From assembly GCA_035264445.1 (NCBI GenBank), contig DATFQE010000283.1, forward strand, positions 1 to 34,179: DNA of 34,179 nt, read 5' to 3'. This document shows positions 2,629 to 34,179 of this stretch, one piece after another. Every line of letters starts with the position of its first letter. Within the stretch, counting starts at the first letter, position 1. A model generated the notes under the pieces. That model did no database searches. It was not told the DNA's origin and saw only the letters and a program-made list of their open reading frames with translations. Source of the DNA: Gaiellaceae bacterium. Lineage in GTDB: Bacteria; Actinomycetota; Thermoleophilia; Gaiellales; Gaiellaceae. Position numbers and translations under genes: made by a program.

Positions 2629-2817
2629 GCAAGCAGCACCTAATCATGCGCCCGCCAATGGGGCGGCCCGCTGCTCGAGACACGAGAAAGGGGGTCTGCC
2701 CCGCTGCAGCTCACGGCGACGACGAGCGAGGCGCGCGCACTCATCCGGCGCACAACACACACAAGAAGGGGAGCGCCGCCACAAAGCCTGGGCGTGCGCG
2801 TCCGGGAGAGAATTGTT

Positions 2818-3380: not shown

Positions 3381-3736
3381 CGTTCAGGTCAGTGATGCGC
3401 CGGCGACTCGTCGGGCTCGCCGCCGCGGCGGGCTGACTGCGATCGCTGGAGCGGTCGAAAAGCGGTTCGCCCGGCGTGACTCTCGTGCCATACCCGCTAC
3501 GAGCCGCCCTGCGACGGCCCGCGTCGCGTCTTGCGCCGTCCGCGGTCTACCGGCACCCTGAAACTGTGGGCGGGCATCAGGTCATTGTCGGGGTGAGTAC
3601 TCACCATGATGGGTGCGCTCGCCGACATCTCGGCGGACACGCTGGAGATCCTGCGCGGGCCAGCTCGACGAAGCGGCAGAGCGCGCTTGCTCGAGGCGAA
3701 GCGGTGAGCGTGGGCGCGCGCGTCGTCGGCGTGAGC

Positions 3737-4192: not shown

Positions 4193-4209
4193 CGAAGTAC
4201 AGTCGCGGC

Positions 4210-6138: not shown

Positions 6139-6161
6139 GCCGGGGGCGACTATGACAGCGT

Positions 6162-6194
6162 CGCAATCGCTTGCGCAACCGTTTGGGAAACGGT
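6162..6194. promoter_or_regulatory. Two candidate LacI-type operator palindromes in the divergent promoter region
   Basis: CGCAATCGCTTGCG (6162-6175) matches its own reverse complement at 12 of 14 positions and fits the TGNAANCGNTTNCA operator style. ACCGTTT-GGG-AAACGGT (6178-6194) is a perfect 7-bp inverted repeat. Confidence 0.35.
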
Positions 6195-8308: not shown

Positions 8309-8309
8309 C

Positions 8310-9410: not shown

Positions 9411-9420
9411 TCGAACCGGG

Positions 9421-14551: not shown

Positions 14552-14782
14552 GCCGCGAATCCCACGCAACCGGTCTCTCGGTCGCACTAGCTCTTGTTCT
14601 TCGTTTTACGATGGCAGCTGCATGAATTCCGGTCGTCGGAGTAGCTCGTCAGGAGGAAGGCACGGCGATCGGGCAGTGGGTGGACTCGACCCTCATGAAC
14701 CTCCGCACGTCGCCGCCGGTCCGGCTCGTCCTCAGTTCGTCGCCGTGTCCAGCGCGCGGAGCCGCCGCCGACTGGCTCGTGC

Positions 14783-15036
14783 GGGGACAAAGTTGTGTTC
14801 TTCGTTCTCAGGCGTGAGAACTAAGATCCCATTTTTGCAGGCGCTTTAGAGCGGATGATGGGTCCAACCCACGACCTTCTGCATGGCAAATCGCCTTCGT
14901 CGAGTGAGATAGACGCAGAAACCCGCTAACTGAGCGATTCTAGGCGCGGGAGTGTCGAGTTAGATTCGCCTATTCGGGGACAAAACTGGGGACAAGAAAC
15001 GTTGTCACACGAGGCGAAAGAACGAACTTGCGGGCG
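14783..15036 (-). repeat. Composite-repeat copy C (full length, C/D subfamily; T-loop region carries a 2-nt deletion)
   Basis: Order of parts: GGGGACAAAG (14783), hairpin GTTCTCA-GGCG-TGAGAAC (14804-14821), TTTTTGCAGGCGCTTTAGA, tRNA-derived core 14851-14888 (GGGTCCAACCC instead of GGGACTCGAACCC), an internal region homologous to copy D, then GGGGACAA at 14976 and 14988. The right arm aligns with copy D up to TTGCGGGCG (15028-15036). Confidence 0.8.
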
Positions 15037-18963: not shown

Positions 18964-19013
18964 CTGCGGTTTCGCATCGGGGATACGCTCGCCGCCGACA
19001 AGGGAGGAACGCG

Positions 19014-19346
19014 ATGAGTACGTTTGGCGAGCAACCCGAGCCGCCGGGACGGGACGCCGACGAGGAGGCTGGGTCGATCGAGCCGCCGCAGTCGCCTGCA
19101 GAGGAGGCCGGCGAGGAGGCTGGTTCGATCGAGCCGCCGCAGTCGCCTGCAGAGGAGGCCGGCGAGGAGGCGGGGTCGATCGAGCCGCCGAAGCGTCCCG
19201 AGGAGGAGGCGGAGGAGGAGGTCGGCTCGATCGAGCCGACGTACCCGGAGGCCGAGGAGGAGACGGGGTCGATCGAGCCGCCGCAATCGCCCGCCGAGGA
19301 GGCTGAAGACGAGGCGGGGTCGATCGAGCCACCGCAGGCCGGATAG
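19014..19346 (+). CDS. Acidic Glu/Pro-rich tandem-repeat peptide (110 aa) with six GSIEP(P/T) units
   Basis: AGGGAGG (19001-19007) lies 6 nt before ATG 19014. This frame uses preferred codons (GAG, CCG, TCG, ATC), whereas the overlapping 19024 frame is full of rare AGG/CGA codons. The product reads MSTFGEQPEPPGRDAD(EEAGSIEPPQSPAEEAG)x2 followed by variant units. The stop is TAG at 19344-19346. Confidence 0.6.
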   Translation: MSTFGEQPEPPGRDADEEAGSIEPPQSPAEEAGEEAGSIEPPQSPAEEAGEEAGSIEPPKRPEEEAEEEVGSIEPTYPEAEEETGSIEPPQSPAEEAEDEAGSIEPPQAG

Positions 19347-20484: not shown

Positions 20485-20770
20485 CGACGCTCTGATTTCC
20501 CGAGCAGCGGCGAGTCAGTCAGGCACTACGGCTGGCGCCTGCTCTGGCAGCTGGAGAACTGCTAAGCGCTGCTCGTCGCCTGGGAGGTCGAGCCGTACAG
20601 CACGGCCCTGGAATGCGACCTGCTCGAGGAGTTCATCGAGACGTAAGGAAGGCTGCCTTCGCAAACCTCAAGCGCGGCCACCAGAACGCTCCTCACCCAC
20701 CTGATGGAACAGGCGAGTTAGGCCACTATCGGGCCACAACCGGCCGACCGCGGCTCCCGACTCCCCGACA

Positions 20771-20795
20771 GAAAACCCCGCCTGAGCGGGGCTTC
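20771..20795 (-). terminator. Intrinsic-terminator-like hairpin directly 3' of the tRNA fragment of copy D
   Basis: Minus strand reads CATCCGC-TCCTCGAAGAAG-CCCCGC-TCAG-GCGGGG-TTTTCTGTC: a 6-bp GC stem (20776-20781 pairing with 20786-20791), a tetraloop and a U-run. This is the context expected downstream of a genuine tRNA gene. Confidence 0.5.
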
Positions 20796-20802
20796 TTCGA
20801 GG

Positions 20803-20986
20803 AGCGGATGATGGGACTCGAACCCACGACCTTCTGCATGGCACACCCTCAAGCGAGTCAGCCTGTCCCAGAAACCTCCTATTTGAGCCATTCTGGCGTC
20901 AGCGGCGCTAGGTTAGATTTGCGTATTCGGGGACAAAACCGGGGACAAGAAACGTTGTCACAAATAGGCGAAGCCAATTGCGGGCG
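20803..20986 (-). repeat. Composite-repeat copy D (C/D subfamily; tRNA core and right arm present, left arm replaced by a terminator)
   Basis: The 40-nt block 20804-20843 is identical to copies B and E. The internal region is homologous to copy C (CAGAAACC...TGAGC.ATTCT.GCG). Then come TAGGTTAGATTTGCGTATTC, GGGGACAA at 20929 and 20941, AACGTTGTCACA and TTGCGGGCG (20978-20986). Confidence 0.8.
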
Positions 20987-21049
20987 CCTGCACAACAGGA
21001 GCTTGCAGGCCAAAGAACGCGGTCGAATCGGCCAGATGAAAGGCGGTAG

Positions 21050-21250
21050 TCGTTACGAGAGGAGGTGGTCGGCGAGGTCTCCGCCTTCGAGGTCGCCGCG
21101 AAGACGGGCATTAGCGGCGGGGCGGCGCGGCGGTACTTCGAGTAGCTCGCCGGGTCCGGGCTGATCGAGCTCATGCTCCACGACCGCGCGATCGGCCGCC
21201 CGGAGCACCTCTATCGCTACGTGCCGCCGCCGTCTGCGCGCGTTCGCTGA
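21050..21250 (+). pseudogene. Remnant of a CitB/DcuR-type response regulator gene (C-terminal HTH only, with an in-frame stop)
   Basis: It translates to SLREEVVGEVSAFEVAAKTGISGGAARRYFE*LAGSGLIELMLHDRAIGRPEHLYRYVPP. This aligns with the C-terminus of the intact regulator at 30783-31472 (AERAGISRGTARRYLEYLAGTGAVELSLRYGATGRPEHLYRW), about 24 of 41 identical by eye. TAG at 21143-21145 replaces the Tyr codon TAC. No receiver domain lies upstream. Confidence 0.7.
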
Positions 21251-21495
21251 GAACTACGAGCCCGCCCGCTCGGACGACGATCGATCCGCGTCGTTCCCCG
21301 ATTGAGCGCCGCTTCGCCCCGCGCGGTGAGCTCCACCCTGGACGCGCGGATCCGCACTAGCCCGTCGCGGACCGCGTCCTCCCAGATGGGGAGACGAGGA
21401 CAACTCGTCCGCCATGCCTCCATTGTCTCTCGGTACGTCCGCGGCGCACTCGCAATCCATACGAGCAGATCACGCGTCAGCGGCGTTGTTTCCAT
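21217..21495 (-). CDS. Hypothetical protein (92 aa)
   Basis: ATG-initiated ORF METTPLTRDLLVWIASAPRTYRETMEAWRTSCPRLPIWEDAVRDGLVRI..., protein-like in its first ~65 aa. The C-terminal tail is Arg/Ser-rich and overlaps the regulator remnant, so the true end is uncertain. Confidence 0.45.
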   Translation of the reverse strand: METTPLTRDLLVWIASAPRTYRETMEAWRTSCPRLPIWEDAVRDGLVRIRASRVELTARGEAALNRGTTRIDRRPSGRARSSQRTRADGGGT

Positions 21496-21819
21496 ACGCC
21501 CAGCCTAGAGCAGCGGCGGCGGCCGGCGCACGCGTGGGATCGCCCATGCGGAATTCCCCTTCGTCTCGTGCGGCGGAGGATCGCGGCAGTGAGGGCAACC
21601 TCCCCGGCCGCTGCGCGCTGGCCAAAGAGATACGCGATGCCGAGCGCTGCCAGCGCGTCGAGACGTTCTTGCCGAGAGCGCTCGCGATAACCGTTGGACG
21701 CAGCGAGACGCGGCTGCGATGCAGGATGATCCCGGTGGTGAAGAGGCCGACCCCGACTCCACCGGCGGCCTGCCCCCACGAAGCCCGAGAGCCTCGTTCT
21801 CGAAAGGAGCTGACCTCCC

Positions 21820-23004
21820 TCAGCGTCGTGGCGCCAGGCCGCCCGCGGATGAGCGCTGGACGACGACGCCCGATGCCGCGAGGACTGCAGCCAGCAGCCA
21901 GAACGCCGCCGCCGACCCGGCCGCACCGGCGACGACGCCTGCCGCGGCCGGCGCCGCGATCTGACCGATCCGGTTACCGCTGATCCGGACCGACAGCGCC
22001 GTCGCGCGTGCGTCCGGCGGCACCAGCTGGGCGACGAGGGTCATCGACAACGGCTGGCCGAAGCCGAGACCGAATCCGGCGACGGCGCTGAGCGCGAGCA
22101 GCAGCGCGAGGTCGCTCAAGAGGGCGATTCCGGCGAACGCGAGACCGGACGCGAGTGCGCTGATCGTGATCAGGCGTAGTCGGCCGACGCGGGCGACGAT
22201 GCCGCCGATTCCGAGCCTGGCGGCCATCGAGGCCGCCGCGCGCACCGCCAGGAGCACGCTGACCGCGCCGGGCGTGATGCCCCGCTCCTCGCCGAGCACA
22301 GGCATGTACGCGGTGAAGATGTCCGCTGCGGCCAGCACGGCGACGCTGGCGAAGATCCCTGCCGGCACGCCGGGCGTCGCGAGAATCATCCGTACGCTGC
22401 CACTCCTCGTCTCGAGAGGGCGTACGACGGCCCCGGCGACCCGATGACGCTGGGCGAGGACGCCGCACACGGCCGCGGCCCCGGCGATCCCGGCTCCGAC
22501 GAGCATGGCGCGGCTCGTCGCGGCGGTGAGCGCGCTGCCGCTGCTGTCTCGTAGCACGGCGCCCGCGATCAATGGGCCGATCAGCTGCCCCAACGAGACG
22601 CCGGCGGTGAGTAGGCCGAAATGCTGGTCGTGTCGCTCCGGATGTGACTCCCGCGCGATCACGTCCTGGACGCCTAGCGCGACCGCGAGGTGACCGAGCC
22701 CCAGGATCGTGCTCGCGAGCGCCAGCGTCGCAGCGGTGTCCGCAACTGCGAGCAGCGCGCAGGCGGCGGCCTCGAATGCGCAGCCCACCGCGATCAAGGA
22801 CCCCGCATGGCGCCGGTCGGAGTACCGCCCGAGCGGAATCGCCGCGACTAGCGGCAGAACGGCGTACGCCGCCGCGACGAGCCCGACGTCGCCGGCGTCG
22901 TAGCCGAGGCTGAGGAGCCGGTAGGACGTGGTCGGGCGGACCACGTAGACGGCCGCCTGCCCGGCCGCCATCGCGAGCAACGCGTAGACGAGCCGGCGGC
23001 TCAA
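21820..23004 (-). CDS. MFS transporter
   Basis: 394 aa and highly hydrophobic, with about 12 TM segments. The MFS loop motif is LGRYSDRRHAG. The TTG start at 23004 directly follows the upstream stop. Confidence 0.85.
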   Translation of the reverse strand: MSRRLVYALLAMAAGQAAVYVVRPTTSYRLLSLGYDAGDVGLVAAAYAVLPLVAAIPLGRYSDRRHAGSLIAVGCAFEAAACALLAVADTAATLALASTILGLGHLAVALGVQDVIARESHPERHDQHFGLLTAGVSLGQLIGPLIAGAVLRDSSGSALTAATSRAMLVGAGIAGAAAVCGVLAQRHRVAGAVVRPLETRSGSVRMILATPGVPAGIFASVAVLAAADIFTAYMPVLGEERGITPGAVSVLLAVRAAASMAARLGIGGIVARVGRLRLITISALASGLAFAGIALLSDLALLLALSAVAGFGLGFGQPLSMTLVAQLVPPDARATALSVRISGNRIGQIAAPAAAGVVAGAAGSAAAFWLLAAVLAASGVVVQRSSAGGLAPRR

Positions 23005-23856
23005 CTACCCCGCGAGAAGTCGCTTCGCCTGCTCGTAGAACGGGATGTCGACGAACTCGCCGTCGACGAGCACGGCGCCCTCGCCGGCGGCGAGCGCCTG
23101 CTCGTACTCCTCCACCACCCGCCGCGCCCGGGCGAGCTCGTCGTCCGTCGGCGCGAAGACCTCGTTGAGGATCGGAATCTGGCTCGGGTGGACGCAGGGT
23201 GCGCCACGCAGGCCGAGCGCGCGCGAGCGCTCGGCGACCCGGCGAAACGCGTCGAGGTCGCCGAACTCCGTGATCGAGCCGACGAGGCCGATCGGGACGC
23301 GACCGGCCGCGATCGTGGCAGTCACGACCTGGAAGCTCGCGATCACGTTCCCGTCGCCGCCCGCCTCCATTCCGGTCGCGATCGTGAAGTCGCTCGAGCC
23401 GAGGCCGATCGCGACGACGCGGGGATGAGCGTTGGCGATCTCCGCTACGCGGAGCAGGCCCCTAGGCCCTTCGATGCGGGGGAAGAGGAGCATGTGTCCG
23501 ACCGGGAGCCCGCGTTCCTCCTCGACCGAGGCGGCCACCTCCGCCAAGCCGATGACATGCTCGGCCGAGTCGACCTTCGGCAGGACGAGGGCACGGACGT
23601 TCGGGTCGACGGCCGCCTCGATGTCCCGCACGGCCAGCCGCCACGGGCGGTTGATCCGGACGAGCACGTCGACGCCGGCCTCCGCGATCCTCGCGGCCGC
23701 CTCGCGAACAAGCGCCCGAGCGCGGTCCTTCTCGGACGGGGCGACCGCGTCCTCGAGCTCGAGGATGACCGCGTCCGCTCCGCGCTCGTGCGCTTTCGCG
23801 ACGAAGCGCTCCGACGTGACCGGCACGTAGAGGAGCGAGCGCCAGCGTGGGGTCAT
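23005..23856 (-). CDS. HpcH/HpaI aldolase / citrate lyase beta-subunit (CitE)-like acyl-CoA lyase
   Basis: RSLLYVPVTSERFVAKAHERGADAVILELEDAV, followed by LVRINRPW and IGLGSSDF, typical of the CitE / malyl-CoA / citramalyl-CoA lyase family. Confidence 0.88.
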   Translation of the reverse strand: MTPRWRSLLYVPVTSERFVAKAHERGADAVILELEDAVAPSEKDRARALVREAAARIAEAGVDVLVRINRPWRLAVRDIEAAVDPNVRALVLPKVDSAEHVIGLAEVAASVEEERGLPVGHMLLFPRIEGPRGLLRVAEIANAHPRVVAIGLGSSDFTIATGMEAGGDGNVIASFQVVTATIAAGRVPIGLVGSITEFGDLDAFRRVAERSRALGLRGAPCVHPSQIPILNEVFAPTDDELARARRVVEEYEQALAAGEGAVLVDGEFVDIPFYEQAKRLLAG

Positions 23857-25094
23857 ACAACGCCATCCTTCGCCAGCTCCGCGAGCTCGCGCTCGGAGAT
23901 TCCGAGCTCACCGTAGACCTCGGCGTTGTGCTCGCCCAGGTTCGGCGCCGGCCTCCGGATCGCTCCGGGGGTGCTCGAGAGCCGCGGCACGACGTTATGG
24001 AGCACGACACCATCCTCCGTCTCGACGATCGCCTCGCGAGCGCGGTAGTGCTGATCCTCGAGGATGTCGAGCGCGTCGTACACCGGCCCGATCGTCAGGC
24101 GGTTGTCCGCGGCGAGCGCGAGCAGCTCGTCACGCGTGAAGCGCGCGAATTCCTCGGCGAGCACGTCGTGGAGCCCGAGCCGGTTTGTCAGTCGCGCCTC
24201 GTAGGTCGCGAAGCGCGGGTCGAGCAGCAGGTCGTCGCGCCCGAGGGCCGCGAACAGCCGCGCGACCGTCTCGTCCGTGGCCGCGGAGACCGCGATCCAG
24301 TGCCCGTCGCCGGTCTGGAACGCGCCTCGGACCGATGAGACACCGGCGCCCTCGCCGCGCTGCCGGAGCTTCCCGCGAGCCGCGTAGGCCGTCGCGTCCG
24401 AGCCCATGATCGAGAACAACGGCTCGAACAGCGAGACGTCCACGACCTGCCCGCTCCCGCCGTTGACGCGCGCCTCCCAGAGAGCAGCCAGCGCCGCCGC
24501 AGCCGCATAGGTCCCGGCGACGGTGTCGGCGAGCGACGTCGGTGCCGAGGTCGGCGGACCGTCGAGCGTGCCGTTCAGGTACGTGAACCCCGAGTACGCC
24601 TCGGCGAGCGTGCCGAATCCCGGCTGCGCTGCCTTCGGGCCCGTCTGCCCCCAGCCGGTGATCCGCACGATCACGAGCCGCGGGTTGCGCTCGAGCAGCG
24701 TCTCGGGGCCGCCGATGAGCCGCTCGAGCACGCCCGGGGTGAAGTTCTCGGCGAGCACGTCGCCGGTCTCGGCGAGACGCAGGAGCAGCTCGCGTCCACG
24801 CGGCTTCGAGAGGTCGAGCGTGACGCTGCGCTTGTTCCGTGCGTACGCGCGCCAGTTCGCGTCGTAGCCGTCGACGGTGGTGTGGCGGAGCCCGTCGCCG
24901 CTACCCGGCCGCTCGACCTTGATCACGTCCGCGCCGAGATCGGCCAGGACGAGCCCGAGTTGGCCGCCGGAGATCAGCCTCGTGAGGTCGAGGACGCGAA
25001 CACCGGTGAGCGGGCCGCGCGCATCGGAGTCGAACCGCGCCTTGGGCAGGTCGAGGCGTGTCGGCTCGACCGTCGTCACTCGACCATCGAGCAC
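23853..25094 (-). CDS. Family III CoA-transferase (CaiB/BaiF type)
   Basis: GPLTGVRVLDLTRLISGGQLGLVLADLGADVIKVERPGSGD is the family N-terminal signature. Length is 413 aa. The GTG start is uncertain. Confidence 0.9.
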   Translation of the reverse strand: MLDGRVTTVEPTRLDLPKARFDSDARGPLTGVRVLDLTRLISGGQLGLVLADLGADVIKVERPGSGDGLRHTTVDGYDANWRAYARNKRSVTLDLSKPRGRELLLRLAETGDVLAENFTPGVLERLIGGPETLLERNPRLVIVRITGWGQTGPKAAQPGFGTLAEAYSGFTYLNGTLDGPPTSAPTSLADTVAGTYAAAAALAALWEARVNGGSGQVVDVSLFEPLFSIMGSDATAYAARGKLRQRGEGAGVSSVRGAFQTGDGHWIAVSAATDETVARLFAALGRDDLLLDPRFATYEARLTNRLGLHDVLAEEFARFTRDELLALAADNRLTIGPVYDALDILEDQHYRAREAIVETEDGVVLHNVVPRLSSTPGAIRRPAPNLGEHNAEVYGELGISERELAELAKDGVV

Positions 25095-26152
25095 GCGTCC
25101 TGCGGGATGTGCACCCTGATCCGGGCACCGTCGACCGGCCTCGAGGTCTGGGCGATCAGCCGGAGCGCGCCCGCCTCGAGCTCATACTCGTAGTGGTCGC
25201 CGAGGAAGGCGGTCGAATGCACGTCGGCATCCCACGTGTTCGTGCCGTTGACGGACGTGTCGCCGCTCGTGAGTAGCGTCATCGCCTCCGGGCGAACGAC
25301 CACCGTCACGCGGTCGGAGACGCGTGCACCTTTCGCGGCGCGCACGGTCAGGCGCCGCGACCCGTCGAGCTCGAGCACCGCCTGGCCGCCGTCGACGCCG
25401 GCGACGACGCCCTCGAACAGGTTGACCCGGCCGACGAACTCGGCGACGAACCGATTCGCGGGGCGGTGGTAGACGTCCTCGGGCGCGCCGATCTGCTGGA
25501 TCTCGCCCGCGCTCATCACGGCGACCCGATCGCTCATCGACAGCGCCTCGTCCTGGTCGTGGGTGACGAAGATCGTCGTCAGCCCGAGTCGGTGCTGGAG
25601 ATCCTTCACCCACGTGCGGGCGCGGATCCTGAGCTTGGCGTCGAGGTTCGAGAAAGGCTCGTCGAGCAGCAGGACGGACGGGGAGTAGACCAGCGCCCGG
25701 GCGAGGGCGACGCGCTGCTGCTGCCCGCCGGAGAGCTCGTGCGGGTAGCGCTTCTCGTACGGCGTCATCTCGACAAGCTCGAGCGTCTGCGCGATCCGCG
25801 AGCGGATCTCGGCCCGCTTCAGCCTCCGCACCTTGAGCGGGAACGCGAGGTTCTCGAAAACCGTCATGTGCGGCCAAACGGCGTAGGACTGGAAGACGAT
25901 GCCGAGGTTGCGCCGCTCGGCCGGAAGCGCGATCCGCTTCGCGGCGTCGAACACCGTCTCGTCGCCCACGCCGATGCGGCCTTGCTCCGGCTGCTGGAAG
26001 CCCGCGATCGACATCAGGGTCGTCGACTTGCCACAGCCGCTCGGGCCGAGCAGCGTGAACAGCTCGCCGTCCCTCACCGTGAAGTCGACGTTGTCGAGCG
26101 CGCGCTGGTCGCCGAAGGTCTTGACCAGACCCTCGACGGTGATCTCAGGCAT
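25076..26152 (-). CDS. ABC transporter ATP-binding protein (FbpC/PotA type)
   Basis: ATG at 26152 gives MPEITVEGLVKTFG. Walker [13 protein letters not shown], signature [15 protein letters not shown], Walker B LLLDEPFSNLD. It overlaps the permease stop by 8 nt. Confidence 0.93.
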   Translation of the reverse strand: MPEITVEGLVKTFGDQRALDNVDFTVRDGELFTLLGPSGCGKSTTLMSIAGFQQPEQGRIGVGDETVFDAAKRIALPAERRNLGIVFQSYAVWPHMTVFENLAFPLKVRRLKRAEIRSRIAQTLELVEMTPYEKRYPHELSGGQQQRVALARALVYSPSVLLLDEPFSNLDAKLRIRARTWVKDLQHRLGLTTIFVTHDQDEALSMSDRVAVMSAGEIQQIGAPEDVYHRPANRFVAEFVGRVNLFEGVVAGVDGGQAVLELDGSRRLTVRAAKGARVSDRVTVVVRPEAMTLLTSGDTSVNGTNTWDADVHSTAFLGDHYEYELEAGALRLIAQTSRPVDGARIRVHIPQDACSMVE

Positions 26153-27884
26153 CGGGGCCTCCAGTTGTGTTGATCTTGAACAGCTTGCTGCCGACGGCGA
26201 GCACGACCACCGTGATGGCGACCTGCAGCATCGCGAGCGCCGCAACGGGCCCGACGGCGCCCTGGATGAACTGAGACAGCATCGTCGCACCCATCACCTC
26301 GGTCCCCGGCTTCACGAGGAACACCGCCGGGTCATAGTCGTTGAGCAACTCCACGAAGAGGAGGATGAAGGCCGCGAACATCGCCGGCCGCAGCAGCGGG
26401 AGGACGATGCGCCGGCTCGTCGTCCACCAGCCTGCCCCTGCAGCCCGTCCGGCGCGATCGAGCTCCTCGCCGATCCGCGCGAGGGTGGGATACATGACGA
26501 CGTACGCGAGCGGCACGTTGCGGACGCAGAAGGCGAGCATGATTCCCCAGATGCTGTTCCGGAACCAGTCACCGAGCGCACCAGTGAGCAGGAATGCCCA
26601 GAAGAAGCCGATCCCGATGATGATCCCGGGGACCGCACGCGGATAGAGCATCACGAACGGCAACGTGCGTCGCAGCCGGAAGGTCGAGCGGTGCGCGACG
26701 AGCGTCGCCAGAGCGACGAACGCCGTCGACAGCACGGCACCGACGAGCGCGATGATCAGGCTGTTCTGGATCGAGTTCCGGAAGATGCCGTCGTCGAGCG
26801 CCTGCCAGTGGCTCCAGGTGAGCAGGTCCCATGGGGCGATCAGGGGGGTGAGGAAGACGACGAACGACATCAGGGCCAGACCGAGGACGGGCAGGAGCGT
26901 CGTGAAGAGCAGATACAGCGTGATCACGCCCGCGAGCGGCCAGCGCCAGCTGCGTAGCGAGAGGAAGGCGACCCTGCCGGCCTTGCCGCCGACCGAGACG
27001 AACCGTGCCTCGGCGCCGAGCAGCCGGTTGCGGACGACGAGGAGGAGCGTCGCCACCAGGAGCAGGATCATGGCGCCGGCGCTGACCGCACCGGGGTCGG
27101 GGGAGGTGCCGTTCGTCCAGAGGGTGTACAGGTAGCTCGAGACGAACTGGATGTTGTTCGGCACGCCGAGCAGGAGCGGGATCCCGAGCACGGCGATCGA
27201 GAGCGTGAAGATCAACGTCGCCGAGTTCAGGAGCGCCGGCCTCAGCATCGGGATCGTGATGCTGCGAAGCACCCGCAACGGTGTCGCGCCCGTGCTGCGC
27301 GCCGCGTCCTCCAGCGACGAATCGGCGCGGGCGAGCGCCGCCTGGCAGGTCAGGAACGCGACCGGCATCAGCCTCGTCGCCTCGACGAGCGCCATCCCGA
27401 AGATCGTGTTGATCGCGGGTACGCCGATGTGCAGCCGCTGGTTGAAGAAGCTCGTGATGTAGCCGCCCTCGCCCCAGACCGCGATCCAGCCGAGCACCAT
27501 CCCGAGCGACGGCAGCAGGAGGGGCAGGAGGACGAGCTTGCCGAACGACCGCCGCCCCGGCAGGTCGGTACGGGTGCAGAGGATCGCGACCGCCGCCCCG
27601 AGTGCGACCGCCATCGCCGTCGTGAGCACGGCGAACTGGAGGGTGTTCCACCAGGCGTGCCAGAAGGCCCGTTCGCGGAGCAGCTCACGGTACGGCTCGA
27701 GCGTGAAGACCCCGCCGGACTCGTACAGCGGGCGGTCTCTGATCGAGGCGTAGGCGAGGGGGAGGAACGGGCCCAGGACGAGCGTGACGACGAGCGCCCA
27801 GGTCAGCCACTGGAGCAGGCTGGCCGGGACAATGCTCCGCCTTGGGCGGGGGAGCGCGTCGGTGGCGTAAGTCGTCGACGTCAT
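26145..27884 (-). CDS. Fused two-domain ABC permease (FbpB/AfuB iron(III)-type architecture)
   Basis: 579 aa with two tandem permease halves, each carrying an EAA-like loop (ARSTGATPLRVLRSITIP and GRAAGAGWWTTSRRIVLP). Confidence 0.88.
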   Translation of the reverse strand: MTSTTYATDALPRPRRSIVPASLLQWLTWALVVTLVLGPFLPLAYASIRDRPLYESGGVFTLEPYRELLRERAFWHAWWNTLQFAVLTTAMAVALGAAVAILCTRTDLPGRRSFGKLVLLPLLLPSLGMVLGWIAVWGEGGYITSFFNQRLHIGVPAINTIFGMALVEATRLMPVAFLTCQAALARADSSLEDAARSTGATPLRVLRSITIPMLRPALLNSATLIFTLSIAVLGIPLLLGVPNNIQFVSSYLYTLWTNGTSPDPGAVSAGAMILLLVATLLLVVRNRLLGAEARFVSVGGKAGRVAFLSLRSWRWPLAGVITLYLLFTTLLPVLGLALMSFVVFLTPLIAPWDLLTWSHWQALDDGIFRNSIQNSLIIALVGAVLSTAFVALATLVAHRSTFRLRRTLPFVMLYPRAVPGIIIGIGFFWAFLLTGALGDWFRNSIWGIMLAFCVRNVPLAYVVMYPTLARIGEELDRAGRAAGAGWWTTSRRIVLPLLRPAMFAAFILLFVELLNDYDPAVFLVKPGTEVMGATMLSQFIQGAVGPVAALAMLQVAITVVVLAVGSKLFKINTTGGPDA

Positions 27885-27906
27885 CCTGGGCTCGAGTCCC
27901 AGCGGC

Positions 27907-29010
27907 CTAGCCGAAGATCGCGTGCCAGCGGTTCTGGAAGGTCGGCCGGTCGTTGACGAACTTCTGGCTGAAGGGGACGAAGATCACGTTCTTCTGTCCG
28001 ACCTTTGCGTACACCTCCGCGAGCGTGTTCTTGCAGCCGTTGGCCGGCTTGAACTTCAGCCGGAAGGCGGTGAAGCCGGCCTCGCACATGATCTGCTGGC
28101 CCTGCGTGCTGTAGACGTAGTTCAGGAACAGCTTGCCCGAGGCTGGGCTTGCACCCCGCTTCGTCACGCCGATCCCGCGAGGCACGAGCGAGGTGGCGTC
28201 GCGCATGTATGCCCAGCCGAGGAGCTCTCGATACTGCGCGTTCGTCTCGATCGTGAAGCGCGCCGTCGGCGAGGTTAGGTACGCCGCCTTGGCCGCTCCC
28301 TGAGCGAGCAGCTGCAGCTGCTGGGCGACACCTGTCGCCGCTCGCAGGCGGTCCTTGCCGACCCGCTGGAGGTTCGCCCAGCCCTTCTTCTGCACGTAGC
28401 CCCAGAGTGCGGTGTAGCCAAAGAGGTTGTCGACCGTGTAACCCGTGAGCTTGTCGTACGTGCCGCTGTCGCTAGCGAGCGCGGCGAGCGTCGTCGGCAC
28501 CTTGCCCCCGGTCAGGCGCTTGTTGTAGACGATGATCGCCGGGTCGGGCGAGAGCACGAAGATGCCCTTGTACTGCTTGACGAAGCTCGGGTACTTGTCG
28601 ATCCCGCCGGGCACGAAGTCCTGGACGTAGCCCTGGCGCCGTGCGTAGACCCACAGGTTCGGGGCGCTCGAGACAAGCAGGTCGGCCGTGCGCGAGCCCT
28701 GCGCAGCCTCGGAGGCGTACTTCGAGAAGATGACGTTGTTGTCGAGGTCGTAGGACGTGACCTTGATCCACGGATACTTCGCCGTGAACGCGTCGGTCAC
28801 GACCTTCCAGTTCGCCGCGGGCGCGTTGCCGTAGACGACGAGCCCCGACTCGCCCCGCGACTGGGCGACGAGCTTCGCGACGGGCGGATTCGCCTTGATC
28901 GGCGTCTGTGCGGGTGTGCCGGCGCCCGCCAGCGCGGCGCTGGCAAGCGCGGTGACGAGGACGAGTCCGAGCGCGACAACCCGCCCCTTACGAGATGAGA
29001 ACGTGGCCAC
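27907..29010 (-). CDS. ABC transporter substrate-binding protein (FbpA/AfuA-like, family 1)
   Basis: GTG at 29010 has GGAGGG 5 nt upstream. The signal peptide is VATFSSRKGRVVALGLVLVTALASAALAGAG. The rest of track ORF 27907..30753 is antisense to the kinase gene and is rejected. Confidence 0.85.
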   Translation of the reverse strand: MATFSSRKGRVVALGLVLVTALASAALAGAGTPAQTPIKANPPVAKLVAQSRGESGLVVYGNAPAANWKVVTDAFTAKYPWIKVTSYDLDNNVIFSKYASEAAQGSRTADLLVSSAPNLWVYARRQGYVQDFVPGGIDKYPSFVKQYKGIFVLSPDPAIIVYNKRLTGGKVPTTLAALASDSGTYDKLTGYTVDNLFGYTALWGYVQKKGWANLQRVGKDRLRAATGVAQQLQLLAQGAAKAAYLTSPTARFTIETNAQYRELLGWAYMRDATSLVPRGIGVTKRGASPASGKLFLNYVYSTQGQQIMCEAGFTAFRLKFKPANGCKNTLAEVYAKVGQKNVIFVPFSQKFVNDRPTFQNRWHAIFG

Positions 29011-29175
29011 GGTATCCCTCCGGTTAGCGAGTGGTGAACAAAGCGGCGGTGATGTTGCGATCTGCACAACCGCGCGTCCAGGCTTGTGGCCGTTGTCGAG
29101 CGAATCGACCTTTGTGAGCGTTTTCTCCTTTTTGCTCACGCGGGATTCGGCGACCGGCGTCGTACCATCTGACGC

Positions 29176-30786
29176 ATGGAGCGGCCGAAGGTCTGGCGGC
29201 GTCCGCGTCTCTCGACGCAGATCCTGCTGCTCCAGGTCGCGATCATCGTCCTGACCGTCGGGGCCGGACTGGCCGTTTCGGTGATCCAGGCCCGCCGCCA
29301 GCTCGACAAGCAGACGGGCGAGACCTCGCTCGCTATCGCGCGGTCGGTGGCGTCGCTCGACTCGATCGTCGAGGCCTTCGGCGAACCTCGTCCCGAGCGG
29401 ACGATCAACCCGATCGCGGAAGGGATCCGGAAGCGCACCGAGGCGGCGTTCATCGTCGTGGCGAACCGGCAGGGAATCCGCTACTCGCATCCGGATTCGG
29501 CCAAGATCGGCGAGCGTGTCTCGACAGACCCGAGCGTCGCGCTCTCGGGCCGCGAGTACATCGGCAGCCAGACGGGGACGCTCGGCCGCTCGGTCCGGGC
29601 GAAGGTTCCGGTTCGCGACCGCGACGGACGGGTGATCGGGCTCGTCTCGGTCGGCATCCTCGAACGCACGATCAGCGCGCGGCTCCTCGCCGACCTGCCG
29701 GTGATCCTGATCGGGCCGGCGCTCGGCCTCGCGCTCGGCATCTTCGGCTCCGTCCTGCTCGCGCGCCGCATCAAGCGGCGGACGTTCGGCCTCGAGCCCC
29801 ACGAGATCGGGACGCTGCTCGAGCACCGCGAGGCGATGCTGCACGGGATCCGCGAGGGCACGATCACCACCGACCTGGACGGACGCGTGACGCTCGTGAA
29901 CGACGAGGCCCGCCGCCTTCTCAAGCTCGACGACGACGCCGTCGGCCGCGACATCATCGAGATCGTCCCGACGGGCCACGTCCGCGAGGTGATGGCCGGG
30001 AACGTCGGTGCCGCCGACCAGGTCGTGCTCGTGAACGACCGCGTGCTCGTCGTCAACCGGATGCCCGTCGCGGTGAGAGGCACGGAGGTCGGCGCAGTGA
30101 TTACGCTGCGCGACCGCACCGAGCTCGAGGGGCTGATGCGCGAGCTGAACGACGTGCGCAGCCTCGCCGACGCGCTCCGAGCCCAGGAGCACGAATTCTC
30201 CCATCGCCTCCACGTGATCGCAGGGCTGATGGAGGTCGGCCGCCACGAGGACGCCGTCCGCTTCATCAAGCAGGAATCGCTCGTCCGGCAGGCGCTCGTC
30301 GCGTCGCTGATGGAGAGCGGCGCCGATCCCGTCCTCGTCGGCCTGCTGCTCGGTAAGGCCGCAGTCGCGTCCGAGCGGGGTGTGGAGCTGCGCGTGACCG
30401 AGGACTCCCGCCTCCCCGGCGAGCTGGCGGATGCGCGGGACCTGATCACGATCGTCGGCAACCTTGTCGACAACGCGCTCGACTCGCTCGCTCCCGCCGG
30501 CTCGGGATCGATCGAGGTGACGATCCGTGAAGAGGCGGGCGGAATCCTCATCCGCGTCCACGACTCCGGCCCCGGGATCGACCCCGGGCTCGTCGAGGAG
30601 ATCTTCACGGACGGCTTCACGACGAAGGTCGCCACCGGCGTCGGCCGGCGAGGGCTCGGACTGGCCCTCGTCAGCGGCGCGGTTCAGCGACGGCGCGGGA
30701 CGGTCAAGGTCGAGAACGCTGACGGCGCCCGCTTCACGGTCTTCCTGCCTCACGTAGCGGCACCGACGGAGCCGGTGTTGACGTGA
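29176..30786 (+). CDS. Sensor histidine kinase, CitA/DcuS family
   Basis: Two TM segments flank a sensor domain, followed by a PAS region, the H-box EFSHRLHVIAGLMEVG, and ATP-binding boxes VDNALDS, DSGPGI and GLGLALV. Confidence 0.9.
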   Translation: MERPKVWRRPRLSTQILLLQVAIIVLTVGAGLAVSVIQARRQLDKQTGETSLAIARSVASLDSIVEAFGEPRPERTINPIAEGIRKRTEAAFIVVANRQGIRYSHPDSAKIGERVSTDPSVALSGREYIGSQTGTLGRSVRAKVPVRDRDGRVIGLVSVGILERTISARLLADLPVILIGPALGLALGIFGSVLLARRIKRRTFGLEPHEIGTLLEHREAMLHGIREGTITTDLDGRVTLVNDEARRLLKLDDDAVGRDIIEIVPTGHVREVMAGNVGAADQVVLVNDRVLVVNRMPVAVRGTEVGAVITLRDRTELEGLMRELNDVRSLADALRAQEHEFSHRLHVIAGLMEVGRHEDAVRFIKQESLVRQALVASLMESGADPVLVGLLLGKAAVASERGVELRVTEDSRLPGELADARDLITIVGNLVDNALDSLAPAGSGSIEVTIREEAGGILIRVHDSGPGIDPGLVEEIFTDGFTTKVATGVGRRGLGLALVSGAVQRRRGTVKVENADGARFTVFLPHVAAPTEPVLT

Positions 30787-31472
30787 TCCGGACGCTCATC
30801 GTCGACGACGACCCGATGGCGGCGTCGATCCACCGCTCGTACGTCGAGCGGGTCCCGGGCTTCGAAGTGATCGGAGAGGCGCACGCCGGCGGCGAGGCGC
30901 TCGCCTACGTGCGCGTGCTCCACCCGGATCTCCTGCTGCTCGACATTTACCTGCCGGACATGAGCGGAATCGACGTCCTGCGCGAGCTGCGGGAGCGCGG
31001 ATCGCACGCCGACGTGATCGCAATCACGGCGGCCAAGGACGTCGACACGCTGCGAACAGCGATCCACGGCGGGGTCATCCACTACCTCGTGAAGCCGTTC
31101 TTCTTCGACGCACTCCGGGAGCGCCTCGAGAGCTACGCCGCCCACCGCGCACGTCTGGAGCGCCTCAGCGAGCCCGAACAGGCCGACATCGACCACGTGT
31201 TCTCGCTCCTGCGGACGCACGGCCGGACGTCGCTCCCGAAGGGGATCTCGGCGCCGACGCTCGCGCGCGTCGTCGAGACGATCCGCGGGTCGGACGAAGA
31301 GTCGACGGCGGTCGACATCGCCGAGCGCGCCGGCATCAGTCGCGGCACCGCCCGCCGCTACCTCGAGTACCTCGCCGGGACGGGCGCAGTCGAGCTCTCG
31401 CTCCGCTACGGGGCGACGGGCCGCCCCGAGCACCTGTACCGGTGGGCAGGCACCGTCAGCACGGCGCGCTGA
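30783..31472 (+). CDS. Response regulator, CitB/DcuR family
   Basis: Receiver motifs LIVDDDP, LLLLDIYLPDMSG, ITAAKD and YLVKPF, plus the C-terminal HTH AERAGISRGTARRYLEYL. The 4-nt overlap with the kinase gene (GTGA) suggests coupling. Confidence 0.9.
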   Translation: MIRTLIVDDDPMAASIHRSYVERVPGFEVIGEAHAGGEALAYVRVLHPDLLLLDIYLPDMSGIDVLRELRERGSHADVIAITAAKDVDTLRTAIHGGVIHYLVKPFFFDALRERLESYAAHRARLERLSEPEQADIDHVFSLLRTHGRTSLPKGISAPTLARVVETIRGSDEESTAVDIAERAGISRGTARRYLEYLAGTGAVELSLRYGATGRPEHLYRWAGTVSTAR

Positions 31473-31521
31473 CGTCCACTCGCTAGGCGGAAGGCCGATC
31501 GTCCTGGCGCTCGGGCGACCC

Positions 31522-31888
31522 GGACAAAGCTCTGTTCATCGGGACAAAGTTCCGTTCATCGTTGTCAGTTCGATGAACAGAACACGCGTTTTGCAGGGAT
31601 TCTAGAGCGGATGATGGGACTCGAACCCACGACCTTCTGCATGGCAAATGGCGAAATCCGGGGCAGCATGCCCCATCATCCGCATTGGAGAGCCATGTTC
31701 CATGCAGCACCGTTAGGTTAGATCGACGTATTCGGGGACAAAATTCGGGACAAAGAACGTTTGCTGTTCCGAAAACGCGGCCTGGAGACACGCGAGTGCG
31801 GACGGGCTCGTTCCGTTGGTAGGCCCGACCCGGGGGCACCTTGTGCCCGCCTTCCCTTGCACGGAAGCGACGCGACTCCGAGTACTCA
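31522..31888 (-). repeat. Composite-repeat copy E (full length, B/E subfamily; the best-preserved copy)
   Basis: A duplicated 20-nt left unit (GGACAAAGCTCTGTTCATCG / GGACAAAGTTCCGTTCATCG), hairpin GTTCATCG-N9-CGATGAAC (31554-31578), TTTTGCAGGGATTCTAGA, then the tRNA-derived unit 31606-31683. GGGGACAA is at 31734 and GGGACAAA at 31747. By manual alignment, 31607-31779 differs from copy B 3109-3281 at 9 of 173 positions. Confidence 0.85.
31606..31683 (-). pseudogene. tRNA-sized tRNA-Gly(GCC)-like unit inside copy E (not a canonical tRNA)
   Basis: GCGGATG-AT-GGGGCATGCTGCCCC-GGATTTCGCCAT-TTGCCAT-GCAGA-AGGTC-GTGGG-TTCGAGT-CCCAT-CATCCGC-T. It has a perfect acceptor stem, G1-C72/C2-G71/G3-C70 plus U73, a T arm, and GCC in a 7-nt loop. 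The 5' anticodon-stem strand does not pair, and the D-arm position holds a 6-bp hairpin with a 3-nt loop. Confidence 0.6.
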
Positions 31889-31894
31889 TCTCAG

Positions 31895-32095
31895 CTACCA
31901 AGCGGCGATGGTCTCCGCTATCTCGTGCTCGAGATCAGCCCACGACCACTCGCCCGAGCTGAATAGGTCGTGCCACTCGAGCTCGTGACGAAGGACCAGG
32001 TTCCGCTCCCAGCTTTCGAGGGTGCCGATCCAACGGACCCACAATGCCTCCAAGCGATCGTGTGCTCCGAGGCTGTGTGTGAGGGTCATGCTCAT
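31895..32095 (-). CDS. Hypothetical Trp-rich acidic small protein (66 aa)
   Basis: AAGGAGGTG lies 6 nt upstream of ATG 32095. The product is MSMTLTHSLGAHDRLEALWVRWIGTLESWERNLVLRHELEWHDLFSSGEWSWADLEHEIAETIAAW, with roughly 75% GC3. It sits directly downstream of the RTX-like gene on the same strand. Confidence 0.45.
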   Translation of the reverse strand: MSMTLTHSLGAHDRLEALWVRWIGTLESWERNLVLRHELEWHDLFSSGEWSWADLEHEIAETIAAW

Positions 32096-32191: not shown

Positions 32192-34179
32192 TTACTCGTC
32201 GCCGCCCAGGTCGACGAGCGTCTGGATCAATGCCGCCACGCCGGGGCCGATGACGACGTCGTCGCCGCCGTCGAGCGTGTTGATCGCGAGCAGGTCGTTC
32301 GCAAGCTCTGGGTGGCTGATTCCGATTGTGGTGAAGAGGCCGGTGACGTCGACGACACCGCCGTTTGCGGCCACCGCGATGTTGTCGGGGCCGTTGGTGC
32401 CGTTGACGGTGATCGTGTCGGCAGCCGCGTCGCCCGCTCCGCCGCCGATCGCGCCGGCCAGGTCGATGTTGACCTTCGTTACGTCCGTGCCGGTCAGGTC
32501 GTTGAGGTCGGCAGTGTCTTTGCCGCCCAGCACCCGGAGATCGACGGTCTCCGTGCCGTCGACGTCCATGACGATGTTGCCGAGATCGCGGGTGAAGCGG
32601 AGCCGTCCGGCGACGGCCGAGGCCTCGAAGGCCTCGTCGCCGGCGGCGCCGATGAACTCCATCGTGTCGTTGCCGGCCTGACCCTCGACCAGGTCGTTGG
32701 CGTCGCCGGGGTTCCACACGAGCGTGTCGTTTCCGGCGCCGCCGAACATGGAGTCGTTCCCCTGCTGACCGGCGATCCGGTCGTTGCCGTCGCCGCCGGT
32801 GAGGACGTCGGCCTCGGTGCCGCCGTTGATGACGAGCTGGATCAGTGCCGCGAGGCCGGGCCCGGCGGTGATCGTGTCTGCGCCGCCGAGGCCGTTGACG
32901 GTCAGCTTGTCGTTGGCGGCCTCCGAGTGCTCGATCTGGACTGCGGGTGAAGTCCCGATCACTTCCACGACGCCCTCGAATGCGTCGATCTGGATGTCGT
33001 CTGGGCCGTTCGTGCCGTTGACCGTGACCGAGTCGGCCGCGCCGTCGCCCACGCCGCCGCCGATCGCAGGCTCGAGGTCGAACGCGACGGACTTGAGCCT
33101 GGTCCCGCTGGTGTCGTTCAGGACCGCGTTGTCGTTACCGCCGAGCGCTTGGACGTCGATGAACTCGATGTCGTTCAGGTCCATCGTGATGTTGGCGACA
33201 TCGCGGAAGAACTTGACGCGCTCGCCGTTGGCCGAGACGTCGAAGTCCTCGGCCGCACTGGCCCCGTTGAAGAGCAGCGTGTCGGCGCCGTCGGCGCCGT
33301 CTTGGCCCTCGACGACGTCGCTGCCGTCGCCGGGATCCCAGATGAACGTGTCGTCGCCGGCTCCGAGGAGACCGGTGTCGTTGCCGCGGTTGCCGTCGAT
33401 CGCGTCGTCACCGTCGCCGCCGACGAGCACCTCGGCACCGTCGCCGCCGTTGATCGTGTCGTCCCCGGCACCGCCGTCGATCCCGAGCTTGATCAGGGCT
33501 GCGAGCCCGACCGCGCCGGAGACCGTGTCGTTGCCGCCGAGCCCCTTGACGTTCAGCAGGTCGTTCGCTGCCTCCGAGCCCGTGATCTTGACGGCTGCGG
33601 CCAGCCCGGTCACGTCGACCGCACCCGTGTTGGGCGTGATCGCGACCGTGTCGTTGCCGCCGGTGCCGTTGACCGTGGTCGTGTCGACCGCCGCGTCGGT
33701 GGCGAGGTCGAGCACGATGTTCTTGACGTCCGTTGCGGACAGGTCGTTCACGACTGTGCTGTCGATGCCGCCGAGCGCGCGGAGATCGACTCGCTCGGTG
33801 TCGTCGACGTCCATCGTGATGTTGGCGACGTTGCGGAAGAACTTCAGGCGGTTGCCGTTGGCGGAGAAGTCGAAGCTCTCCGCGACACCGGCGCCGTTGA
33901 AGAGCATCGTGTCGGCGCCGTCCTGACCTTCGACGACGTCGCTGCCGTCCCCCGGATCCCAGACGAAGGTGTCATCGCCGGAGCCCATCAGCGCCACGTC
34001 GGCGCCTCCGTTTCCGTCGATCGCGTCGTTCTCGCTCCCGCCGCGTAGCGTGTCGTTGCCGTCGCCGCCGTTGATCGCGTCGTTGCCCGCTCCGCCGTCC
34101 AGCGTCAGCTGCGTGAGTGCGGCGAGCCCGATGGCTCCGTTGAGCGTGTCGTTGCCGGCAAGAGACTCGACGGCCAGCG
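32192..34179 (-). CDS. Large calcium-binding hemolysin-type (RTX-like) repeat protein; the N-terminus lies outside the window
   Basis: The frame is open to the window edge. Upstream of the track's GVG start at 33997 it still reads LAGNDTLNG...GGAGNDAINGGDGNDTLRGGSENDAIDGNGGAD. Numerous GGxGxD nonapeptide-like motifs occur, and a module of about 207 aa is repeated at least three times (GDDTFVWDPGDGSDVVEGQDGAD / GDDTFIWDPGDGSDVVEGQDGAD / GNDTLVWNPGDANDLVEGQAGND). Confidence 0.85.
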   Translation of the reverse strand, partial: LAVESLAGNDTLNGAIGLAALTQLTLDGGAGNDAINGGDGNDTLRGGSENDAIDGNGGADVALMGSGDDTFVWDPGDGSDVVEGQDGADTMLFNGAGVAESFDFSANGNRLKFFRNVANITMDVDDTERVDLRALGGIDSTVVNDLSATDVKNIVLDLATDAAVDTTTVNGTGGNDTVAITPNTGAVDVTGLAAAVKITGSEAANDLLNVKGLGGNDTVSGAVGLAALIKLGIDGGAGDDTINGGDGAEVLVGGDGDDAIDGNRGNDTGLLGAGDDTFIWDPGDGSDVVEGQDGADGADTLLFNGASAAEDFDVSANGERVKFFRDVANITMDLNDIEFIDVQALGGNDNAVLNDTSGTRLKSVAFDLEPAIGGGVGDGAADSVTVNGTNGPDDIQIDAFEGVVEVIGTSPAVQIEHSEAANDKLTVNGLGGADTITAGPGLAALIQLVINGGTEADVLTGGDGNDRIAGQQGNDSMFGGAGNDTLVWNPGDANDLVEGQAGNDTMEFIGAAGDEAFEASAVAGRLRFTRDLGNIVMDVDGTETVDLRVLGGKDTADLNDLTGTDVTKVNIDLAGAIGGGAGDAAADTITVNGTNGPDNIAVAANGGVVDVTGLFTTIGISHPELANDLLAINTLDGGDDVVIGPGVAALIQTLVDLGGDE

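Follow-up and report, generated by a model that had tools for sequence, protein, structure and literature searches.

A tRNA-Gly-like unit of a soil Thermoleophilia-type actinobacterium as a probable chimeric att junction in a tandem array of integrated elements

Mycobacteriophage L5 and other actinobacterial elements integrate into tRNA-Gly, and the 2002 classification of K. P. Williams reportedly includes integration of an anticodon-loop type. The repeat family described here resembles L5-type or anticodon-loop integration in having a core that runs from the anticodon loop to the 3' end of the tRNA and in carrying short repeated arm motifs, and is unlike L5-type systems in its arm motif (TTTGTCCCC), its spacing and its host. 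Because the common core spans the anticodon loop to the 3' end, the tRNA would be restored after integration.

The traces that such events leave behind have been described from several sides. In the description of Islander, as far as it concerns island ends, a regenerated target gene and a displaced fragment of that gene mark the two ends of an island (PMC4383910). Integration-derived tRNA fragments, the attR sites, get listed as standard tRNAs or as tRNAs of undetermined isotype (PMC9897764). Elements can also accumulate by tandem accretion, in which a newcomer integrates into a resident's att site, and att-flanked modules without an integrase (CIMEs) have been described for ICESt1/ICESt3 of Streptococcus thermophilus (PMC5704250).

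The window, that is, the whole 34,179-nt stretch of DNA analysed here, holds a 78-nt tRNA-sized unit (unit E, minus strand) that shares with island-end fragments a tRNA 3' block that starts inside the gene and is duplicated at an element boundary. Unlike those fragments, it appears as an internal attP-like junction between tandem elements and not as a terminal attR, and it has no nearby integrase; additionally, the element-derived left side of unit E and of a second copy, unit B, happens to rebuild a perfect acceptor helix. The window as a whole resembles CIME arrays in its four to five att units, its metabolic cargo, the lack of an integrase and its strain-variable modules. It differs from the CIMEs of ICESt1/ICESt3 in that it belongs to uncultured soil Thermoleophilia-like Actinomycetota and shows a non-simple order of sites.

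The tRNA-sized unit and the repeat that surrounds it

An earlier note on this DNA had described the 78-nt unit as one that keeps the identity elements of tRNA-Gly on a different fold, and the sequence quoted there was confirmed at 31606-31683 on the minus strand. The tRNA-like features listed in that note are all present: a perfect 7-bp acceptor helix (GCGGATG/CATCCGC) with U73, the classical bacterial glycine identity set (G1-C72, C2-G71, G3-C70 and U73), GCC at the anticodon position within a TTGCCAT loop, and a canonical T arm (GTGGG-TTCGAGT-CCCAT). The described departures from a tRNA were found as well. The D arm is absent and a GGGGCA/TGCCCC hairpin occupies the D position, the anticodon stem is missing in that GCCAT is unable to pair with GCAGA, and the 5' end is complementary over 12 nt to the T-stem/acceptor 3' strand (GCGGATGATGGG/CCCATCATCCGC), with a further complement upstream (CTGCATGG/CCATGCAG). 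The pseudo-tRNA of copy B, at 3108-3185, has the same layout as that of E, plus substitutions.

No confident canonical tRNA call was obtained for unit E. ARAGORN reported a 'tRNA-???' with a 2-nt anticodon at 31605-31683, leaving the isotype unassigned, and the Rfam tRNA model (RF00005) gave it 27.2 bits, where the gathering score is 29. The unit falls outside RF00005 on its covariance score and on the four-helix cloverleaf, while the acceptor stem and the T arm are in place. The only other weak Rfam match was to mascRNA-menRNA (21.6 bits against a gathering score of 42.5). No family was matched when the whole window was compared with Rfam at gathering scores, and a tmRNA search of the window with ARAGORN found none.

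Overlooked in the earlier note was a larger repeat around the 78-nt unit: unit E is embedded in a repeat of about 240 nt on the minus strand, which occurs in five copies in the window, one of them (A) partial. The 3' 28 nt of the 78-nt unit have three exact occurrences in the window. Read in tRNA orientation, a unit consists of two TTGTCCC direct repeats, an 84-nt spacer, a 43-nt core and a second arm, which contains CCTGCAAAA, then a hairpin and then another TTTGTCCC. The features of the five copies are as follows:

31542-31779, minus strand: unit E, attP-like (P-O-P'), delimited by repeat finding
31729-31753, minus strand: P-arm direct repeats of E, TTGTCCC-N5-TTGTCCCCGAATA, putative protein-binding arm sites with an over-represented pattern
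31648-31728, minus strand: P-side spacer of E, element DNA by comparison with sister contigs
31648-31683, minus strand: pseudo 5' half of E (the last 36 nt of the spacer), with GCGGATG, the GGGGCA/TGCCCC hairpin and GGATTTCGCCAT
31605-31647, minus strand: 43-nt att core of E, TTGCCATGCAGAAGGTCGTGGGTTCGAGTCCCATCATCCGCTC, corresponding to tRNA-Gly(GCC) from position 32 through the discriminator +1 base
31521-31604, minus strand: P' arm of E, with CCTGCAAAA, the hairpin GTTCTGTTCATCG/CGATGAACGGAAC, then ACTTTGTCCC and GCTTTGTCCG
3042-3281, minus strand: unit B, attP-like (P-O-P') and of the E subtype, with the pseudo-tRNA at 3108-3185 and 11/12 inverted-repeat matches
14785-15009, minus strand: unit C, attP-like (P-O-P'), of a different P-side subtype, with 2 nt deleted from the core within its T-loop part
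20772-20962, minus strand: unit D, attR-like (P-O-B'), with P arm, spacer and core, then the native tRNA downstream flank, repeat finding placing the unit at 20794-20962
1007-1072, minus strand: unit A, a P' arm remnant with CTCTAAAACACCTGCAAAAG, hairpin and TTTTGTCCCC, the core being degraded or absent

In unit D, a terminator hairpin (CCCCGC..GCGGGG TTTT) after the core replaces the second arm. The hairpin of the P' arm is kept with differing sequences in B and C and in three copies from outside the window (L001, L003 and L004). The arm repeats stand far above expectation: the pattern TTGTCCC-N5-TTGTCCCCGAATA occurs four times in the window against 0 expected, and TTTGTCCC occurs eight times, always on the minus strand, against 0.21 expected. 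The repeats of TTTGTCCC lie on both arms at fixed spacing, and judging from the sequence pattern they are candidate binding sites for an integrase or an accessory protein.

Alternative states of the E locus in sister strains

Contigs of sister strains that cover the E locus were chosen by their identical histidine kinase (window 29176-30786); these contigs end at or just beyond E. Across the window and sister contigs L169-L172, three states were found at the exact position of E. Two contigs, L170 and L171, carry a canonical tRNA-Gly(GCC), GCGGATGTAGCTCAGTTGGCTAGAGCGTCTGCTTGCCATGCAGAAGGTCGTGGGTTCGAGTCCCATCATCCGCT, which ARAGORN called as tRNA-Gly gcc and which reached 72.4 bits with Rfam in L170; after this tRNA come the P' arm and the response-regulator and kinase genes that the window also has. 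Two others, L169 and L172, carry a P-O-P' unit with a different P side, the L172 copy having a substitution in the acceptor 3' strand. A search with the response regulator for sequence past the right end of the window gave no match, and the intact tRNA-Gly of the window's own strain was not found by ARAGORN in the 34-kb window.

Aligned with the tRNA of L170 and L171, unit E is 100% identical from T32 to the 3' end plus 1 nt and shows essentially no identity at positions 8-31, the boundary of similarity being a single step at the anticodon loop. The 5' 36 nt of E are element DNA, since L170 and L171 hold the true tRNA 5' half there and L169 and L172 hold another P side. The 78-nt unit is therefore chimeric, with 36 nt that come from an element and 42 nt that are genuine tRNA-Gly. 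Since the latter, on the 3' side, repeat the host tRNA-Gly letter for letter, the 3'-side glycine identity elements, the GCC loop and the T arm of E have been passively inherited. Compared with the canonical tRNA-Gly(GCC), E is identical over the 3' 42 nt, and it scores 27.2 against 72.4 bits and has a predicted rod fold. The core itself is identical in attL-type (L170 and L171), attP-type (E, B and L169) and attR-type (D and L042) sites, and the core block matches annotated or real tRNA-Gly(GCC) genes elsewhere. An abrupt block of tRNA 3' identity, an intact tRNA at the same position in L170 and L171 and a presence/absence polymorphism mark E as an att site.

The step-like boundary also bears on the suggestion that E is simply a dead tRNA, that is, a tRNA-Gly pseudogene whose D and anticodon arms have decayed in place through point mutations and small indels. 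Its tRNA-like length of 78 nt and the intact state of both acceptor strands and of the 3' half would suit such an origin. Gradual decay is nevertheless wrong as an account of this unit because the boundary runs in a single step from perfect identity to no similarity: the divergence from the sister-strain tRNA is not graded. E moreover has P and P' arms that are common to more than a dozen other loci, and the tRNA 5' half, when aligned locally with the P-side spacers, does no better than with shuffled sequences (best p = 0.03, in copy C only; others 0.17-0.99). Decay in place is thus given next to no probability. A degenerate tRNA 5' half, with a GCTCAGnTAGG D arm and a TCTGC anticodon strand, was considered for the P side of C and D and rejected, the alignment being no better than that of shuffled sequences.

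Very probably, unit E is an internal attP-like junction (P arm-core-P' arm) where integrated elements have accumulated in tandem at a tRNA-Gly(GCC) gene, the host of the array being a soil Thermoleophilia-type actinobacterium. An incoming element that carried the tRNA 3' part, from position 32 to the end, would have recombined with a chromosomal tRNA-Gly that already had an earlier element downstream. By the crossover, the true 5' half of the tRNA would have ended up at the newcomer's far end, and the tRNA 3' half would have been joined to P-side DNA of the newcomer. Among the candidates of the earlier note, a recombination-site hairpin came closest: a recombination site or att scar is essentially right, and the hairpin gives way to a double-stranded att junction with arm repeats. 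What looked like a designer tRNA mimic would accordingly be a chimeric att junction, of a kind known to confuse tRNA finders. As such, it poses no new question for tRNA biology; the att-junction feature is ordinary and well known in kind.

Fold, transcription and the inverted repeat

The structure drawn in the earlier note was followed by pair counts through an alignment of 16 distinct family copies, and no conserved tRNA-like fold and no covariation in favour of one emerged: by pair counts and by RNAalifold, only the T arm is kept as a helix across the 16 copies. The T arm is 100% paired, and its UA to AU compensation merely tracks the variant of the host tRNA. Pairing in the acceptor-like helix amounts to 64%, without covariation, and positions 2, 5 and 7 are mostly unpaired; in the hairpin that substitutes for the D arm it amounts to 63%. 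RNAalifold predicted no acceptor helix and gave the T arm and short local pairs only. In hosts with a CCCTT T stem (L001, L002, L004 and L030), the 5' strand keeps T where A would be needed, and in L030, the nearest member of the subtype, the acceptor helix cannot form.

Folded by itself, E is predicted to take, at its minimum free energy of -43.4 kcal/mol, the shape of a rod whose 14-bp terminal helix consumes the T stem; the tRNA-like fold, at -27.6 kcal/mol, is 15.8 kcal/mol worse, and the T-stem pair probability is about 1e-5. Compared with shuffled sequences, the fold of E has z = -5.6. The rod-like alternative that the earlier note had sketched from CTGCATGG/CCATGCAG together with ATGGC/GCCAT was rejected. 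The complement between CTGCATGG and CCATGCAG is present in E, but family-wide the fold is 59% paired, no better than shuffled sequences.

These results weigh on the reading of E as a functional tRNA-like RNA transcribed from the unit, whether as a mimic, a decoy, a substrate of RNase P or the CCA-adding enzyme, or a ligand of GlyRS. Such an RNA would account for the perfect 7-bp acceptor with U73 and the identity pairs, for the canonical T arm and for the notice that both ARAGORN and the Rfam tRNA model took of E; the fold z-score of -5.6 and the 12-nt complementarity above chance likewise speak for it. The predicted stable rod, however, consumes the T stem and leaves the tRNA-like fold 15.8 kcal/mol less stable, the D arm and the anticodon stem are missing with an Rfam score below gathering, and the 5' strand neither is conserved nor covaries in the 16 relatives. 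The nearest subtype member (L030) is without an acceptor helix, and sister strains carry a real tRNA or another P side at the E locus. A consensus scan of 31450-31950 found 0 sigma-70-like promoters and 0 terminators. With its 5' strand unconserved, its T arm sequestered and a real tRNA standing at the same spot in sister strains, a tRNA mimic or decoy with a new fold, as the earlier note had envisaged it, finds no support, and a functional RNA of any of these kinds retains a very slight probability. A regulated promoter with a small RNA (TTGTCC as -35, TAACCT as -10, and the P' hairpin as terminator) was also considered and was rejected on the same promoter and terminator scan, which returned 0.

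The complementarity within the unit is nevertheless real. The longest exact inverted repeat between P side and core was 8 nt in 300 shuffles against the 12 nt in E. The complement to the tRNA 3' end covers 12/12 positions in E and 11/12 in B, its perfect form being confined to the E/B lineage, and both E and B additionally have an 8-nt complement to CCATGCAG in the anticodon loop/stem. Over the 16 copies of the family, the baseline is 6-9/12 complement positions against about 3 expected. An older imperfect inverted repeat, corrected in one step by quasipalindrome template switching, would be a plausible source of the 12-nt complement. That the P side of E and B is instead a functional inverted copy of the core, serving as an extra core-type site for the integrase or as a cruciform, or that it gives a read-through RNA a tRNA-shaped or rod-shaped processing signal, is quite improbable.

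Two observations stand beside these. The model of an att junction predicts neither the 12-nt complement of E nor the family-wide baseline of 6-9/12. Additionally, the P arm and the left edge of the core are connected throughout the family by an inverted repeat of 7-8 bp, GGCAAATC...GATTTGCC.

Relatives of the unit, cargo modules and integrases

With the arm pattern, the unit was also recovered from MAGs that are labelled Actinomycetota, Gaiellaceae and Acidobacteriota (L001-L004), and nine further soil metagenome loci have the same P arm and tRNA-Gly core. In total, the family has at least 13 distinct loci beyond the window, each of the attP type (P-O-P') or of the attR type (P-O-native terminator flank), and attP-type and attR-type forms with the same P side occur in one MAG (L001/L002). 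Counted from the first repeat as far as CCGCT, 14/17 distinct copies measure exactly 148 nt, the P-side spacer being fixed in length and poorly conserved in sequence. Contig L027, from the same locus as L030, lacks 52 nt of the spacer between P arm and core, among them the stretch where E has its pseudo 5' half; this speaks against an RNA function, as does the acceptor-strand substitution of L172.

Within the window, the segments between B and C and between D and E have att units on both sides and encode only metabolic, transport and regulatory proteins, as follows:

3282-14784: B-C cargo module, with a LacI regulator, an ABC sugar transporter, GFO/IDH/MocA oxidoreductases, a xylose-isomerase-like protein and a DegT aminotransferase (Pfam)
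20963-31520: D-E cargo module, with an MFS transporter, an HpcH aldolase, a CoA-transferase, an ABC transporter and a two-component system (Pfam)

Other genes among the units of the window encode a GroEL fragment, a GNAT acetyltransferase, a cyclase-AAA-TPR protein, a nitroreductase and an RTX protein. Both modules have counterparts in other strains. On its E side, the D-E module has a real tRNA-Gly, acting as attL, in L170 and L171. Contig L173 has the P side of C joined, within the core, to the P' arm of B and precisely lacks the 11.7 kb that separate B from C in the window. At the locus of D, contig L042 has the same downstream flank after the core and a different element upstream. RecA-mediated recombination between direct repeats is an equally possible route to the B-C deletion. 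In the window, units C, B and A lie downstream of the native flank of D, an order unlike that of a simple attL...attR array; capture of flanking DNA or nested insertions may underlie this odd order of sites.

No integrase was found in the 34-kb window by Pfam on 30 ORFs, by tblastn with two integrases or by a motif scan, nor was one found within the examined flanks of any tRNA-Gly-type family member. Two small ORFs beside P' arms (815-1039 and 2794-3042) were considered as excisionases, and neither had a Pfam match. Since the window has no integrase, it can be described as a tRNA-Gly hot spot at which cargo modules lacking an integrase form an array. An integrase of the tyrosine type, encoded elsewhere, would act on the units in trans, and the modules between them would behave as integrase-less (CIME-like) cassettes.

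The lack of an integrase near any tRNA-Gly-type unit would equally be expected if the units were inert dispersed repeats, such as old att scars or MITE-like sequences, with differences between strains arising from homologous recombination and not from ongoing integrase activity. The 2-nt deletion in the core of C, the loss of the core of A and the core substitution in L172 agree with such inertness, and the B-C deletion product is also expected from direct-repeat recombination. Inert repeats do not readily explain, however, how two different P sides came to replace the tRNA 5' half at one locus, which needs foreign insertion at the core, and the different element upstream of the locus of D in L042 weighs in the same direction. 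The arm repeats and the exact 148-nt spacing are kept in diverged copies, suggesting continuing selection on the geometry of the site, and in a single MAG one P side is found in both an attP-type and an attR-type version (L001/L002). We consider inert repeats unlikely, if still worth keeping in mind.

Read as an array of integrated elements, the window records an integration hot spot at tRNA-Gly among uncultured soil Thermoleophilia-like actinobacteria, in which whole metabolic modules, integrase-less and bounded by complete att units, vary between co-occurring strains. The 11.7 kb block for sugar catabolism and ABC transport is one such strain-variable example, and the tandem accretion and cis-mobilizable picture is thereby extended to a poorly studied clade.

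Some relatives place the P arm beside integrase genes. In L032, a PF00589 integrase gene starts 65 nt from the same P arm, and a tRNA-Arg 3' fragment and a terminator follow the arm; in L067, the P arm precedes a tRNA-Ala 3' half, with a fragment like the C-terminus of an integrase on the other side. The link between P arm and integrase through these two loci is suggestive, not clean: their tRNA cores differ from tRNA-Gly, and the two integrases are of different types. In the L032 integrase, Cys replaces the catalytic Tyr. Its homologues are abundant in soil Thermoleophilia (e.g., Paraconexibacter antarcticus), where they lie beside tRNA-Arg(ACG), and L166 combines two integrases with a tRNA-Arg array in which one full copy and two partial ones stand in tandem.

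Searches of mobile-element collections for the unit gave only a 43-nt match to a phage tRNA-Gly in the phage collection and no match in the plasmid collection. Viral contigs scanned for the E-type P side and for the junction of core and P' arm gave 0 matches each, and those scanned with the P-arm pattern gave only unrelated low-GC or coding repeats. Viral contigs L017-L019 have the same tRNA-Gly core from GCCATGCAG on, with other arm repeats; in L018, the flank after the core is similar to that of D, and in L017, a tyrosine integrase directly adjoins the tRNA-Gly core.

A cassette-like module and its absence from a sister strain

The B-C module, 11.7 kb of DNA lying between two of the att units at the tRNA-Gly(GCC) core, is missing in its entirety from the sister-strain contig L173 (positions 1-900).

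3282-14784: B-C module, sugar catabolism/ABC transport, bounded by units B and C

The absence is precise, and the junction that replaces the module in L173 falls within the tRNA-Gly core. Judged from these sequences, the B-C module behaves as an integrase-less cassette bounded by att sites. According to BLAST offsets, L173 also lacks approximately 160 nt that the window carries between its nitroreductase gene and unit D (about 20511-20671).

A 51-nt tandem repeat is present in six copies (one of 42 nt) at 18986-19337, where the array covers the last part of the cyclase-AAA-TPR gene and the first part of the nitroreductase ORF. Going by BLAST offsets, the corresponding array in L173 appears to be one unit shorter. 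Large internal repeats of about 615-650 nt, together with numerous 54-nt sub-repeats, occupy 32255-34178 within a minus-strand gene that carries RTX/HemolysinCabind repeats; this gene extends toward the window end and is located in the element DNA upstream of unit E.

Non-coding DNA around the P arms

Units B and E have in common a non-coding stretch of approximately 110 nt directly upstream of their P arms, and an inverted repeat found across the family connects the P arm with the left boundary of the core.

3282-3400, minus strand: non-coding stretch upstream of the P arm of B
31780-31900, minus strand: the same stretch upstream of the P arm of E
about 31720-31727 and 31645-31651, in E: inverted repeat GGCAAATC/GATTTGCC (alignment A2 columns 27-34 and 108-114)

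The conserved pattern of the B/E stretch, …GCGTSGCTTYCC..GCAMGGGAAGGCGGGC..AGGTGCC.CGGGTCGGGCCT…, displays stem-like complementarity, and no match to the stretch was found in Rfam. The inverted repeat is kept in 15-16 of the 16 distinct att-unit copies in alignment A2, with no compensatory change, and may be a protein-binding site. At the locus of E in the sister contig L169, two additional T-arm-like fragments, GACGGTTCGAGTCCGTC and CAGCCGTTCGAGTCCGACAG, were noted upstream of the alternative P side (about 11650-11850); these may have been left behind by other tRNA-derived att sites.

Putative arm sites of other elements

Just downstream of the terminator of unit D, a 20-nt GGCCCGATAGTGGCCTAA-like sequence (window 20718-20737) exactly matches L168 2921-2940, which has an integrase gene on one side and a tRNA-Arg fragment on the other. 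This sequence may be an arm site of yet another element, and such an extra element could partially account for the placement of units C, B and A past the native flank of D.

The pattern TTGTCCC-N5-TTGTCCCCGAA was also matched in unrelated metagenome contigs (L020, L050, L074, L079, L116 and L126), some of human gut origin, with several of the matches close to integrase-like ORFs, at distances of 0.4-2.7 kb in the four loci checked. Direct repeats resembling this pattern may act as arm sites in other element families.

Integrases and arrays at tRNA-Arg

The integrase adjoining the P arm in L032 (P0001, 2844-3974) carries the motif TLDNCGH, in contrast to TLDNYGH in its close homologues (P0002, P0007 and P0030). 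A cysteine stands in place of the catalytic tyrosine, and the encoded protein is therefore probably inactive, barring a sequencing error. Separately, a clean tandem array was observed at tRNA-Arg(ACG) in L166 (9861-18540), comprising the full tRNA followed by two partial copies that each begin in the anticodon loop; its genes include two integrases, one HTH_17 (excisionase-like) gene and one PIN/PhdYeFM pair.
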